Source of the DNA: Picochlorum sp. SENEW3
Lineage: Eukaryota
Reading direction: 5' to 3'
Assembly (NCBI GenBank): GCA_034226945.1
Contig: CP120454.1
Coordinates: forward strand, 1,488,001-1,552,000
Length of the DNA stretch: 64,000 nucleotides
Made by a program: the position numbers and the translations under genes
Notes under the pieces: model-generated
The model's input: the letters and a program-made list of their open reading frames with translations, nothing else
Told to the model about the DNA's origin: nothing
The model's database searches: none
Shown here: positions 31,504 through 36,078 of the stretch, piece by piece
Layout of the letters: each line of letters opens with the position of its first letter
How positions within the stretch are numbered: position 1 is the stretch's first letter

Positions 31504-31746
31504 CTATACATATGGTATACGTATGTTCATGTCAAATTATCGATGGATGGAGGATATTGATGGCAATCAAGACTTCTCCTGGACAATTTGCTGATATATT
31601 CCGTAAATAGATATTGAATACATTGGTGGGTTTTAAAACCACATGGTTTCGATCCTCGTGAATAGTTGGATACAGATCTCAAATCCCGTGCGATTTAAAT
31701 ATCTACGCCGTGCTGTCTTCGTATCTTATGGTGTGAAAGGCGCAAT

Positions 31747-32517
31747 ATGCGAACACTACTGTGTAGGGCACTTGGAACGAGGATGCAGTCAGTACACGCG
31801 AAAGAATCTGCGATTGCGCAGTCCTTGACGAATGTTCTATCAAGAGCTCGCGAGGCGTCACTCAAAGCTGGGAGGGAGGTGCCACCCAGGCTTGTAGCTG
31901 TGAGCAAGACGAAACCAGTGTCTGACCTTCGAGAAGCGTATGACGCAGGACAGCGCTACTTTGGCGAAAATTATGTACAAGAAATAGTAGAGAAGAGCCC
32001 TGAGCTTCCCAATGACGTGCAGTGGCATTTTATAGGGCACTTGCAGTCGAATAAAGTGAAGACACTTTTGGAAGGAGTTCCCTCTTTGGCATGCATTGAG
32101 ACTGTAGACAGTCAAAAGCTGGCGAGTAAGCTTGACAGTGCGATCGAAAAGCTTTCGAGAGGTAGTTTAAGGGTTTTTGTTCAGGTGAACACGAGTGGAG
32201 AGGAAAGCAAGTATGGAGTGGAGCCTGGGCCAGACTGTGTCTCTCTCTGCAAACATATCGAAGAGTCTTGTCCTCACCTCACATTGGCCGGGCTGATGAC
32301 AATTGGCCAACCAGACTATTCTTCAAGGCCAGAAAATTTCGTCAATCTTAAGGAGTGCAGGAAAGAGGTATGTACGGCCCTGGGAAAGCAGGAAGGCTTG
32401 CTGGAACTCAGCATGGGGATGAGTGGGGACTTTGTCCAGGCCACAGAAATGGGGAGTACAAACATACGCGTTGGATCAACAATATTTGGTGCTAGAGACT
32501 ATTCGAATAAAAAGTAG
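31747..32517 (+). CDS. PLPBP: PLP homeostasis protein (YggS/PROSC)
   Basis: LVAVSKTKP, FGENYVQE, WHFIGHLQSNK, QVNTSGEESK, LSMGMSGDF, RVGSTIFG. Confidence 0.97.
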   Translation: MRTLLCRALGTRMQSVHAKESAIAQSLTNVLSRAREASLKAGREVPPRLVAVSKTKPVSDLREAYDAGQRYFGENYVQEIVEKSPELPNDVQWHFIGHLQSNKVKTLLEGVPSLACIETVDSQKLASKLDSAIEKLSRGSLRVFVQVNTSGEESKYGVEPGPDCVSLCKHIEESCPHLTLAGLMTIGQPDYSSRPENFVNLKECRKEVCTALGKQEGLLELSMGMSGDFVQATEMGSTNIRVGSTIFGARDYSNKK

Positions 32518-32526
32518 AAGAGTTGC

Positions 32527-33662
32527 TTACACTGGGAAGATAGAGTCAGGGAGTTGCTCATCCAAGAGGAATACTCTTTGCAAGCAAAGGCCTTTGCCTT
32601 CGGCCACTTGATACTGCGATTTTTGATTGTACAATTTCGTTTCATCGCCTTGTAAAAGGATGTCGATATCCTCCCTATCTAGCTTGTGGTATCCCACTGC
32701 AATCAGCACGCCCACCATGTTTCGGACTTGTTTGTACAGAAAACCTTTACCCATGACTGCCACCCGAATGCCCCCTGGAATATCCCCCAGCTTGCATTCA
32801 TATATCATTCGCTCTGAGCTTTCGAGAGCAAGATCAGTCTTATTCGTAAGCAACCGAAAGTCCCTCAGGCCAACAAAGGACTGGCATCCTTCCCTCATGG
32901 CATCAATATCAAGCTCAGCTGGATTTTTCGGCACATGCCTATACCTGCAGGTGAAAGGATCTCTATATTTGTCTAGATGGATATCGTACGTATAAATCTT
33001 GCCATTCGTGAACCTCACATTGAAATCATCCTCTACAGGTGACAGAGCAGATGTCACTATACTTGATGGAAGCATGCTATTCATCGCACGAACAAACGTC
33101 TCCTCATTCAGAACCCTATTTGAATAGAACTCTACGTACTGTTGTCGCGCATGTACTCCAGAGTCTGTGCGTGCAGCCCCTTGCACCACCAGATGATCCC
33201 TGTGCATCCCATGCAGAAACCTGCACAGGGACCTCTCCAGGGCTGCTTGCACCGTTGGCACAGAGGGCTGCAGCTGAAATCCACAAAAGTCCGTACCATC
33301 GTATGCAACTTCAAAGACGTACTTTTGCCTCAATCCCCCTTTGTGGGTGCAGGCTCCTGATGCACCATCAACAGACCCCCTACAATAAGAACGATGCCAA
33401 TGACCCATGGCATCGATACTGCTTCTCTGAAAAATACTGCACCTAGTATGCCACTCATAATGATGTTGGATCCTACAGACACTCCTGTGGCTCGCAGTGA
33501 CGATGTGTGGCGCATAGATGCCGAGAAGAGGAACAGCATCCCACCGTTTGTCTACAAACACAATACAAGGTTTTCTATCAGTGGCGAACCTCATCACGTC
33601 GCCTGCCATTAAATACTCGTACCAAGACCATGAGAATGTATAGAAATATTCTGAGGCCCCAT
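32527..33662 (-). CDS. truA: tRNA pseudouridine synthase TruA family; N-terminal extension overlaps the TMEM42-like gene in the -1 frame (start 33662 if spliced, or 33408)
   Basis: YVFEVAYDGTDFCGFQLQ, TVQ, AARTDSGVHA, GKGFLYKQVRNMVG, GLCL. The start is inferred. Confidence 0.9.
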
Positions 33663-33763
33663 CGATCCTCAAAATAGAGCCCAGCACACTTTCCTAGAGC
33701 AGCAGACGTTGCACCCAAACAACCAGCAGAGACACCCAAGTATAGCCACCAGGACTTCAGCAT
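33330..33763 (-). CDS. TMEM42-like small DMT/EamA-type membrane protein (exons 33623-33763, 33330-33551)
   Basis: SAGCLGATSAALGK; TNGGMLFLFSASM; SNIIMSGILGAVFFRE..WVIGIVLIVGG. 71-nt GT-AG intron. Confidence 0.85.
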
Positions 33764-33949
33764 GAATCCATCTATGTACTCAAATATCCAATTGCAAATT
33801 CCTCTTCACTGGATCGAATTTTGTCGCAGAATAACCTCCGATCGGCATCTCGGCTGACCCATGACTACATTGAATTCGAATGCATGCCGCATTCGAATTC
33901 GAATCAAAGATGGGCCGCTGACAAAGGAGACCCCTGTATCATTTACTAT

Positions 33950-34556
33950 ATGGTTCGTGAGTATTTAGAGATTCGGTCGGGCAGGGCAGGGGCCGGACTG
34001 TTCGTTGGCTGTGGAGCAGGTAGGTGCAGTTCTCGCGGACTAGTAAATACGGCCAGATGGCCATGCATGGCCTGGAGAAACGCTCTTCCTTTTGTTCGCA
34101 GGTATTGGATACCTCTCCCCCGTCAACATCTATGCGGTTCCAGTGGTTGGGCAAATGGTAGGCAGTATTCTGCAGAATATTTCAAGAGCTGACCAGGGAC
34201 TTGGTGGGATAGGTCACCGCGTTACCTCGCTACTTGGTTCGGTCCAGTTTCCAGGTGGAGTTCGCGCGGGCGTGGGCTGCGGAGTTGGAATTGGATATGG
34301 CTGGGGCATTGGAGTCATGCTCAAGCCCAGTGCATCTTCGCGGATTGTGGACACTGTAAGGTCTCTCCTGCCTGCGCAGGCACTCCACGTATCCTCCGAT
34401 CCGCATGACAGCTCAGCACCTGAGATTGCTGGGACCACCAAAGAAAATAGGACGGATGTTGTGCTGAGGGAGGAATTCGAAACTCTGAAGCACAGGGTTG
34501 AGGATTTGGAGAGAGAGATGACCCTTTTAAGGCATGACTCCAAACACACGCGATGA
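33950..34556 (+). CDS. Gly-rich conserved protein with C-terminal coiled coil (intron 34020-34101)
   Basis: GAGLFVGCGAGIG and AGVGCGVGIGYGWGIG motifs; terminal heptads. Confidence 0.7.
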
Positions 34557-34833
34557 CGACTTCCGCTCTGCCCAAGTTCGCGCAGCTAAGAATAAAAATA
34601 CATCGTAGCCCTACCTCCTCCGACTATGCGACCTGGGAGGTCATACTCGAAAGGACTGACAGCGGGAGCACTCGTGATATTTGTGGGACTCGTTGCGTCA
34701 TATCCAGTGTTGCACGCAACCAAAGGGCCAAAGGTACTATTTAATTGAATTGAAACTTTCCATGGAGCATTAAGGAAACGAATCTATGTCTATATTGTTC
34801 AGATTAGCGAAGGAACGAAGGGTCTAAATCCAG

Positions 34834-36078
34834 ATGCGCAAATTCGCGGGGCCTACACAAACACTGGATCCAAGGACATTGGGCCGGACACTAGGGTTTA
34901 CAAAAGCTAATATAAATAAAATTTGCATCCATCGGGTCAGTCACCGCGATGATGCCGAGCAGTGTAGTAGTAGTCGTGGTAGAGAGGTGCCTCTGGAACG
35001 TTGCGTTATCGTGTCTCTCGCGGCCTCGTTGATGGTGTTTTCCAATCAGCCTGACGCGGATGCGTTGCTGTCTTCACCCAAAACTCAGATTCCGAGGACA
35101 GCAGAGGCTGCTCTGAGAAGGTCCGTCCCTGCATTCAACAGCAAAGTTTATGAGCTGCAGAAGAACTTGGAGAACATTGCATACCAATTACGGATACCCC
35201 AGCGCAAGCCTTGGAAGGATATGCAAGAGTATGCATCGAGGGCACGCGACCTTGCCCAAGACGAGAATGGAGTCCTAGAGGGAGTTCTTCCTGATGATAT
35301 TGAGGAGGCTCTCGACTTGTTGTCCGGTATCCAAAGTGATCTGAACAAGCTCTTGAAATCAATAGACATAAAAGATTCTGACCGGACCTCCATAAGAGTC
35401 GCAAACGCTTTGGAGCGGGTTGGTAACCTTGAGCTTCTGCAAACACCTGGTCTCCCGTATTCAATTCCGGCAAAGTACCAGAGTATGCCCAGGCTCACCG
35501 GTCGAGCCGTTGTGGAGTTGGTGATCCAAAAGCAGAAAGGGGCAGCTCCATTTTATGTGAATGAATCAGGTGATCGAGAGAGAGCGAAGATTCAAATAAC
35601 TCTCGATGGATTTGGAGCACCGTTGTCTGCAGGCAGATTTGCTAAAAATGTTCTCGACCATATCTATGATGGGACAACCCTCAGCGTCGATGATTCATCT
35701 GTGTTTGGAAATCCAAAAGAGCCACTTGATAGTGCTCAGATTCTACCACTTGAAATTTTGGCCAGAGGAGATTTGGAACCAACCTATGGCAACAGTGGAT
35801 TGGATGTAAATAGTGGCGAGATGCCCACATTGCCCTTGTCCATCTATGGATCTGTTTCCATGACAAGATTGGATGATGGTAACTCATCTGGCAGCGACTT
35901 TTTCATCTTCAAGTATAATCGACAGCAATCTGGTTTATCAGGGCTTTCGTTTGATGAGGGTCGATTTGGCGTATTTGGGTATGTCACGTCCAATGCCAAT
36001 GTCTTGCGACAAATTGACAATGGTGACATAATTGTCAGTGCCAAACTGATATCTGGAATCGACAAATTGAGGGAATAA
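34834..36078 (+). CDS. CYP37: Thylakoid-lumen cyclophilin CYP37-like
   Basis: Bipartite transit peptide; LSSPKTQIPRTAEAALRRSVP; PRLTGRAVV; DGFGAPLSAGRF; GLSFDEGRFGVFGYV. Confidence 0.88.
   Translation: MRKFAGPTQTLDPRTLGRTLGFTKANINKICIHRVSHRDDAEQCSSSRGREVPLERCVIVSLAASLMVFSNQPDADALLSSPKTQIPRTAEAALRRSVPAFNSKVYELQKNLENIAYQLRIPQRKPWKDMQEYASRARDLAQDENGVLEGVLPDDIEEALDLLSGIQSDLNKLLKSIDIKDSDRTSIRVANALERVGNLELLQTPGLPYSIPAKYQSMPRLTGRAVVELVIQKQKGAAPFYVNESGDRERAKIQITLDGFGAPLSAGRFAKNVLDHIYDGTTLSVDDSSVFGNPKEPLDSAQILPLEILARGDLEPTYGNSGLDVNSGEMPTLPLSIYGSVSMTRLDDGNSSGSDFFIFKYNRQQSGLSGLSFDEGRFGVFGYVTSNANVLRQIDNGDIIVSAKLISGIDKLRE

Follow-up and report, generated by a model that had tools for sequence, protein, structure and literature searches.

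How does a conserved enzyme come to be translated when every start codon that could serve it lies within the gene next door? The question is posed by a compact nuclear locus of the green alga Picochlorum sp. SENEW3, contained in a 64,000-nucleotide (nt) stretch of contig CP120454.1 (the window; coordinates below are positions in it, and both genes lie on its minus strand). Here a gene for a small TMEM42/EamA-like membrane protein is followed by one for the tRNA pseudouridine synthase TruA, whose catalytic domain begins only three codons past the TMEM42 stop, so that every upstream AUG in the TruA frame falls inside TMEM42. We conclude with high confidence that the region is truly dual-coding and that TruA starts at AUG 33662, within the TMEM42 coding sequence. 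We further consider it probable that this is one compact locus producing two unrelated proteins from overlapping frames of a single transcription unit. The comparison rests on four DNA lineages, namely the window and three algal loci obtained in a metagenome-contig scan (L001, L002 and L003, with TruA identities to the query of 82%, 51% and 38%), and on a fifth lineage available as a protein pair (P0123 and P0004).

The first open reading frame (ORF) comprises 120 codons once spliced. It opens at AUG 33763 with exon 1 (33623-33763), for which there are N-terminal homologues in L001, L002 and L003, crosses a 71-nt GT..AG intron common to both frames (33552-33622), and ends in exon 2 (33330-33551) at the TGA at 33332-33330. 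Its AUG stands in a weak context, ttcATGc (T at -3, C at +4), and is overlapped by a four-codon upstream ORF (33757-33771, AUG 33771, stop TGA). The second ORF, of 354 codons, runs in frame +2 (equivalently -1) relative to TMEM42, from AUG 33662 (33660-33662) to the TAA at 32529-32527. This AUG lies 101 nt past AUG 33763 in the spliced RNA and is made up of the third base of an arginine codon, CGA, and the TG of a conserved TMEM42 tryptophan codon. Between 33662 and 33330, a stretch of 262 nt after intron removal, the TMEM42 frame and the TruA extension frame are both open; the first ~88 residues of TruA are thus written over the membrane-protein gene (~87 codons read in two frames), while the end of the extension, the pseudouridine synthase domain and the stop codon occupy 32527-33329 alone. 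The AUGs of the spliced RNA follow in the order 33771, 33763, 33662, five in the TMEM42 frame, and then 33408 (33406-33408), which is again in the +2 frame, has the context gccATGg and would give a TruA of 293 residues. In unspliced DNA the TruA frame is open from 33693 to 32527, and two intron AUGs, 33609 and 33594, would read into TruA if the intron were retained. An earlier note on this DNA had placed the domain right at the TMEM42 stop with all possible TruA AUGs inside the upstream gene, named 33662 as the first AUG after 33763 upon splicing and as the -1-frame start of a 354-residue protein, put the overlap at about 260 nt across the splice junction, and remarked on the weak TMEM42 context and the overlapping four-codon ORF. 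All of this was borne out; its inventory of start codons was right as to AUG 33662 but overlooked the in-frame AUG 33408 and the two within the intron.

By its sequence, the second ORF is a bacterial-type tRNA pseudouridine(38-40) synthase TruA. It matches the TIGR00071 equivalog model at 156.5 bits (cut-off 142.85) over about 33321-32625 and Pfam PF01416 with E = 7.7e-26, and the structure of E. coli TruA (PDB 2nqp) aligns to residues 91-318 of the 354-residue form with E = 1.7e-17. The motif residues R141, T142, D143, G145, V146, H147 and A148 are invariant among 17 aligned sequences, and the aspartate of this R-T-D-x-G-V-H-A motif is one we take to be the TruA catalytic residue. The first ORF has sub-threshold matches to Pfam EamA, at 24.5 bits for exon 2 of the window (E = 3.7e-5), 22.9 bits for L002 and 24.4 bits for L003 against a gathering cut-off of 28.2, all three falling on one and the same part of the profile. 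For the intronless homologue in L002 the nearest Atlas cluster is 'transmembrane protein 42' (0.95, with 217/256 shared features), which serves as a lead and is not an alignment. The closest named homologous proteins come from Picochlorum, and a word-based protein search with TMEM42 exon 2 matched only two proteins, none of them from a transcriptome.

The relatives show AUG 33662 to be the conserved start of the TruA frame. In a tblastn search with four TMEM42 proteins covering 80 loci, TMEM42 adjoins TruA only in L001-L003; the other 77 lack such a neighbour and appear, from their low identity, to be mostly bacterial. The earlier note had proposed looking for a conserved 33662 AUG in orthologous loci, and it is there: in all four DNA lineages an ATG in frame +2 lies on the same conserved TMEM42 tryptophan codon, at +101 (window), +101 (L001), +107 (L002) and +110 (L003) from the TMEM42 AUG. 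It opens TruA ORFs of 354 (window), 366 (L002) and 379 (L003) residues, that of L001 ending at the contig edge. The codon that precedes the tryptophan codon differs in each lineage (CGA, CAA, TTA and CCA, for R, Q, L and P), and its third base is always A; two of these codons are rare in long ORFs, with CGA contributing 0.126 of arginine and TTA 0.095 of leucine codons. The intron is present in L001 at the same place (L001:1700-1767, 68 nt) and absent from L002 and L003. The upstream ORF is not conserved, a GTG standing in the place of AUG 33771 in L001. In the fifth lineage, the TMEM42-like protein P0123 and the TruA protein P0004 are codon-compatible as frames 0 and +2 at 86/86 positions, as are P0121 and P0005 of L002, taken as a positive control (86/86), and the first residue of P0004 falls on the R-W codon pair of P0123; this is a statement of codon compatibility only, and the initial methionine of P0004 is an automatic call that could stand for GTG or TTG. 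As a separate observation, L001 has a stop codon in the TruA frame at L001:2370-2393, ~20 nt from the contig end, where the window and P0002 have tyrosine; it is probably a contig-end error.

The alternate frame is also open beyond what chance would give. Over the overlap, frame +2 has no stop codon in any of the four DNA lineages and frame +1 has five to seven (six in the window). Upstream of the TruA ATG there is a single +2-frame stop in every lineage, and downstream of it there is none. That stops in this frame might appear in relatives had been foreseen as a possible refutation; none appears in any relative examined. The earlier note had also cautioned that hydrophobic codons deplete stops in the -1 frame. 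We considered a null model, based solely on holding the TMEM42 protein fixed and resampling its synonymous codons by local usage, and the caution proved sound as far as it went: only 2.2-3.7 stops in frame +2 are expected over the overlap. The opening nonetheless goes beyond this null, with probabilities of an open +2 frame of 0.075 (window), 0.080 (L001), 0.011 (L002) and 0.051 (L003), and the product for the window, L002 and L003 is ~4e-5 on the presupposition that these three lineages are independent. Across four DNA lineages and one protein pair, then, the second frame is open and its start is conserved beyond codon bias.

Selection on the overlap otherwise leaves little trace. Between the window and L002, identity within the overlap is 48% for the TMEM42 frame and 30% for the TruA extension, against 59% for the TruA domain. 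The reduction in synonymous variation that had been anticipated for the overlap is not found: between the window and L001, third-position divergence amounts to 21/88 in the overlap and is no lower than the 26/127 of the TruA-only part, a result that counts against our reading. With third-position divergence not reduced, selection is visible only on the start codon and in the absence of stops.

The splicing on which both frames depend is seen in sequencing reads. Four runs (X1, X3, X7 and X8) were compared over 31600-34700 as assembled contigs, which carry no transcript ends, strand or expression level and whose RNA nature is a guess. The intron, first proposed from the letters of the window, is confirmed by a joint from 33550 to 33622, skipping exactly 71 nt, in contigs of three of the four runs (X3, X7 and X8, from three studies). 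The X1 contig reads through the intron, with a 2-nt deletion at 33558, and X1 thus behaves as DNA. One X3 contig (record 14) covers 33190-33550 and is joined to 33622 and onward, so that the spliced contig continues beyond the TMEM42 stop into TruA. No alternative 5' exon joined to TruA occurs among the contig joints of the four runs. An extra base in the G5 run at 33335-33339 would have fused the frames, as the earlier note pointed out; no indel is present there in X1, X3 or X8, the runs with contigs covering it, and the two frames are therefore not an assembly artefact. The spliced ORF is confirmed, moreover, in poly(A)-type transcriptome data by P0126, a member of the closest homologue's cluster and a 354-residue ORF on a 2049-nt MMETSP transcript, whose N-terminus equals the spliced +2 reading from an AUG homologous to 33662, although P0126 is an ORF call on a transcript and not evidence of translation.

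Several further observations concern the intron and the contigs. Intron length varies among close strains: against 71 nt in the window, X1 has 69 and L001 has 68. In one strain (P0127) unspliced DNA gives a 410-residue read-through ORF from the TMEM42 start into TruA. Within TruA, an X3 contig (depth 30.8) has a joint from 33027 to 33140 that skips 112 nt, with AT..AC ends and five extra letters, and probably reflects either an error of assembly or a variant allele. A likeness of the unspliced frame to the N-termini of P0004 and P0005 ('LRIDG', alignment A1) was rejected as coincidental once the L002 DNA had been read.

What might a TruA leader written in this way be for? The extension is 89-100 residues long across the lineages and has a net charge of +5 to +7; its residues 1-85 are modelled with a predicted local distance difference test score (pLDDT) below 50, and the TruA domain is modelled confidently. 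Extensions of about 100 residues are found on other algal TruA homologues too. An organelle presequence fits a positively charged, low-pLDDT extension on a bacterial-type enzyme, and this poorly conserved stretch would most likely act as an organelle-targeting presequence, a reading drawn from composition alone.

We favour as the probable arrangement a single transcription unit for both ORFs, with one promoter and, at the TruA stop, one putative poly(A) signal in common. The earlier note had already proposed that one mRNA yields both proteins and that the alternate frame may encode a targeting peptide for TruA, an interpretation that the data support in part. The spliced RNA would carry both the 120-residue membrane protein (AUG 33763) and the 354-residue TruA (AUG 33662), and ribosomes would reach AUG 33662 by leaky scanning past the weak TMEM42 AUG, from 5' ends lying just downstream of it, or by both routes. 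Reinitiation after TMEM42 cannot serve TruA, whose AUG comes 262 nt ahead of the TMEM42 stop. The marks associated with leaky scanning are partly in place. A pyrimidine occupies position -3 of the TMEM42 AUG in three of the four lineages, and few ATGs intervene between the two starts: none in the window or L001, and one each in L002 and L003, opening ORFs of nine and two codons. The TMEM42 proteins have no methionine from residue 2 to residue 34, 36 or 37, and four to six methionines thereafter. The narrower proposal, that a leader of ~88 residues for an organelle is encoded wholly in the alternate frame of the membrane-protein gene and that both proteins come from one spliced mRNA by leaky scanning, is one we hold only tentatively.

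On the 3' side of the locus, the minus strand between 34902 and 31000 has a single TGTAA, at 32531 (32527-32531); it overlaps the TruA stop and is the only such putative poly(A) signal downstream of either ORF. The earlier observation that none lies between the TMEM42 and TruA stops therefore stands for the window, and it holds for L002 and L003 too; the TGTAA on the TruA stop recurs in L003. In the window, TGTAA occurs within 150 nt past 17 of 43 long-ORF ends, as against 9% of random positions.

A number of points weigh against a single transcript read from both starts. Out-of-frame ATGs between the two starts are not significantly depleted (P(0) = 0.31 for the window). In the window and L001 the -3 base of AUG 33662 is itself weak (T), and the context of AUG 33408 is better. 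At the TGTAA density of this genome, a stretch of 800 nt would lack the signal by chance in more than half of cases. A contig that spans two ORFs is no proof of a single molecule, and the translation of either ORF is a prediction. Finally, X7 and X8, runs from two studies, have contigs that stop at the same place, 33740, without a loose end; this position is 23 nt downstream of the TMEM42 AUG, the DNA run continues past it, and the shared ends are a weak hint of a 5' end that excludes the TMEM42 AUG.

This last observation bears most directly on the alternative that survives best, according to which TMEM42 has its own mRNA and the TruA mRNA starts inside TMEM42, the DNA being dual-coding and no single mRNA so. 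Its 5' end could lie just past 33763, leaving AUG 33662 as the first AUG, or further down, giving the 293-residue form from AUG 33408. The ends at 33740 fit the former variant; for the latter, AUG 33408 has a strong context, the five TMEM42-frame AUGs between 33662 and 33408 would make it reachable only from an internal 5' end, and 293-residue forms have been called by automatic ORF finders (P0128-P0130 and P0134). However, the contig ends come from data of depth 3.7-7, X3 continues upstream of them, and TMEM42 has no TGTAA of its own. The column of AUG 33408 holds methionine in P0001, P0006, P0008 and P0012 but leucine in P0002, P0004 and P0005, and the L002 overlap has no in-frame AUG after the first, so 33408 is not the conserved start; any start downstream of 33662 would leave the conserved ATG on the tryptophan codon and the open frame unexplained. 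We regard separate overlapping transcripts as rather unlikely, at about one chance in a few.

It is far less probable that the open alternate frame is an untranslated by-product of hydrophobic codon usage, with TruA starting later, at a non-AUG codon, or without an extension. Such codon usage does lower the number of +2 stops to the small expectation given above, the extension is poorly conserved between the window and L002, and the ORF calls P0010 and P0139 begin right at the domain. Against this, the frame is open in all four DNA lineages with stops placed just upstream of the ATG, and the ATG survives after four different preceding codons, of which CGA and TTA are rare. The first methionine past the domain start lies beyond the conserved YDGT strand, and TruA extensions of ~100 residues recur in other algal homologues.

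An intron-retaining isoform, in which TruA starts at intron AUG 33609 or 33594, is highly improbable. In the window, as in the ORF calls P0001, P0002 and P0133, the unspliced frame does read across the intron with no stop. Yet L002 and L003 are intronless, the 68-nt intron of L001 contains no ATG, and the 2-nt deletion in X1 together with P0127, which reads the intron in another frame, indicates that the intron drifts like non-coding DNA. No intron-retaining contig was found in X3, where the spliced contig by itself accounts for the depth over the intron bins.

That the frames are really one, joined by an assembly indel at the G5 run or by a programmed -1 frameshift at A_AAG_GGG into a TMEM42-TruA fusion, is the least credible explanation: the window and L001 do have an X_XXY_YYZ heptamer where TMEM42 reaches its stop, and two annotated models join the genes, but no run covering the G5 run has an indel, the two-frame layout also occurs in L002 and L003, which lack both G5 run and heptamer, and the models arrive at a single frame only because they leave out parts of each protein. 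Those deposited models, P0009 (Picochlorum sp. BPE23 M9435_003842) and P0021 (Picre1 27059), begin at the TMEM42 start and then jump into TruA fragments, and are, as their sequences read, chimeric misannotations of this locus by way of invented frame changes. Automatic annotation thus fails here, which is relevant to the Picochlorum strains used in biotechnology.

The neighbourhood of the locus is equally tight. A plus-strand gene at 33884-34556 lies head-to-head with TMEM42, their start codons ~120 nt apart, and the TMEM42 5' leader must consequently be short. This gene has an 82-nt GT..AG intron (34016-34097) confirmed by X3, in which one contig spans this gene and TMEM42; its exon 2 has no Pfam match. 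On the other side, a convergent plus-strand gene of the Ala_racemase_N/YggS type (31699-32517) ends at a stop codon 10 nt away from that of TruA. The plus-strand TGTAA nearest to it, at 32651, lies within the TruA coding sequence, and the TruA TGTAA at 32531 adjoins the stop of the convergent gene; with each signal in or next to the other gene, the 3' ends of the two must overlap antisense. Beyond the head-to-head gene, the plus-strand ORF 34828-36078, with a CYP38 PsbQ-like domain and a cyclophilin domain, is an ordinary neighbour. CYP38 is a thylakoid-lumen protein of plants.

The closest known parallel is found among green algae, in bicistronic and polycistronic nuclear loci that are translated by leaky scanning and are defined as having an inter-ORF spacer between one ORF and the next (Gallaher et al. 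2021, PMC7896298; Duenas et al. 2025, PMC11892635). The latter ties leaky scanning to a first ORF whose start context is weak and to a scarcity of AUGs ahead of ORF 2 (PMC11892635). The present locus is alike in its two unrelated same-strand ORFs, the short first ORF (here 120 codons) with a weak start context, the few start codons before ORF 2, the one poly(A) signal after ORF 2, and a trebouxiophyte host, as is Auxenochlorella. It is unlike in that ORF 2 starts here 262 nt before the end of ORF 1, with no spacer, and in that the defining trait there is one mature mRNA bearing both ORFs, with no monocistronic forms, whereas here we infer the single transcript. The overlaps mentioned in the supplementary information of Duenas et al. 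(PMC11892635) are those in which the stop of ORF 1 overlaps the start codon of ORF 2, and overlapping pairs were 'ignored' in the internal ribosome entry site analysis in that of Gallaher et al. (PMC7896298). The words 'pseudouridine' and 'TMEM42' are absent from the main texts and supplements of PMC7896298 and PMC11892635 in the form in which these were accessible. A literature search found no paper with both 'TMEM42' and 'pseudouridine synthase', and, judged by title and abstract, none of the papers retrieved on Picochlorum and polycistronic expression concerns this locus.

Many RNA viruses and a few mammalian loci have overprinted, dual-coding genes for which leaky scanning is the mode of expression. 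The Picochlorum locus resembles them in that the N-terminal part of the second protein is encoded in another frame of an existing coding sequence, from a downstream AUG, and in that one of the frames, that of TMEM42, is the better conserved. Unlike in those cases, the overprinted part is no new protein but serves as leader to an old, conserved enzyme that has its catalytic domain beyond the overlap; the locus is also nuclear and cellular, with an intron inside the overlap. To our knowledge, eukaryotic nuclei offer few cases of long, conserved two-frame coding between unrelated cellular genes that are both old, and here it persists in relatives whose TruA identity to the query is as low as 38-51%.

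The locus extends the green-algal bicistron phenomenon from spacer-separated to deeply overlapping ORFs, with a geometry that rules out reinitiation to ORF 2. If the proposed expression from one mRNA is true, such loci would furnish a proof from nature that translating ORF 2 of algal bicistrons cannot depend on reinitiation. More generally, our findings suggest that genome compaction may reuse coding sequence for targeting leaders under low constraint. Targeting peptides tolerate almost any sequence, and compact picoalgal genomes could for this reason, should the reading hold, repeatedly 'park' presequences over small upstream genes.

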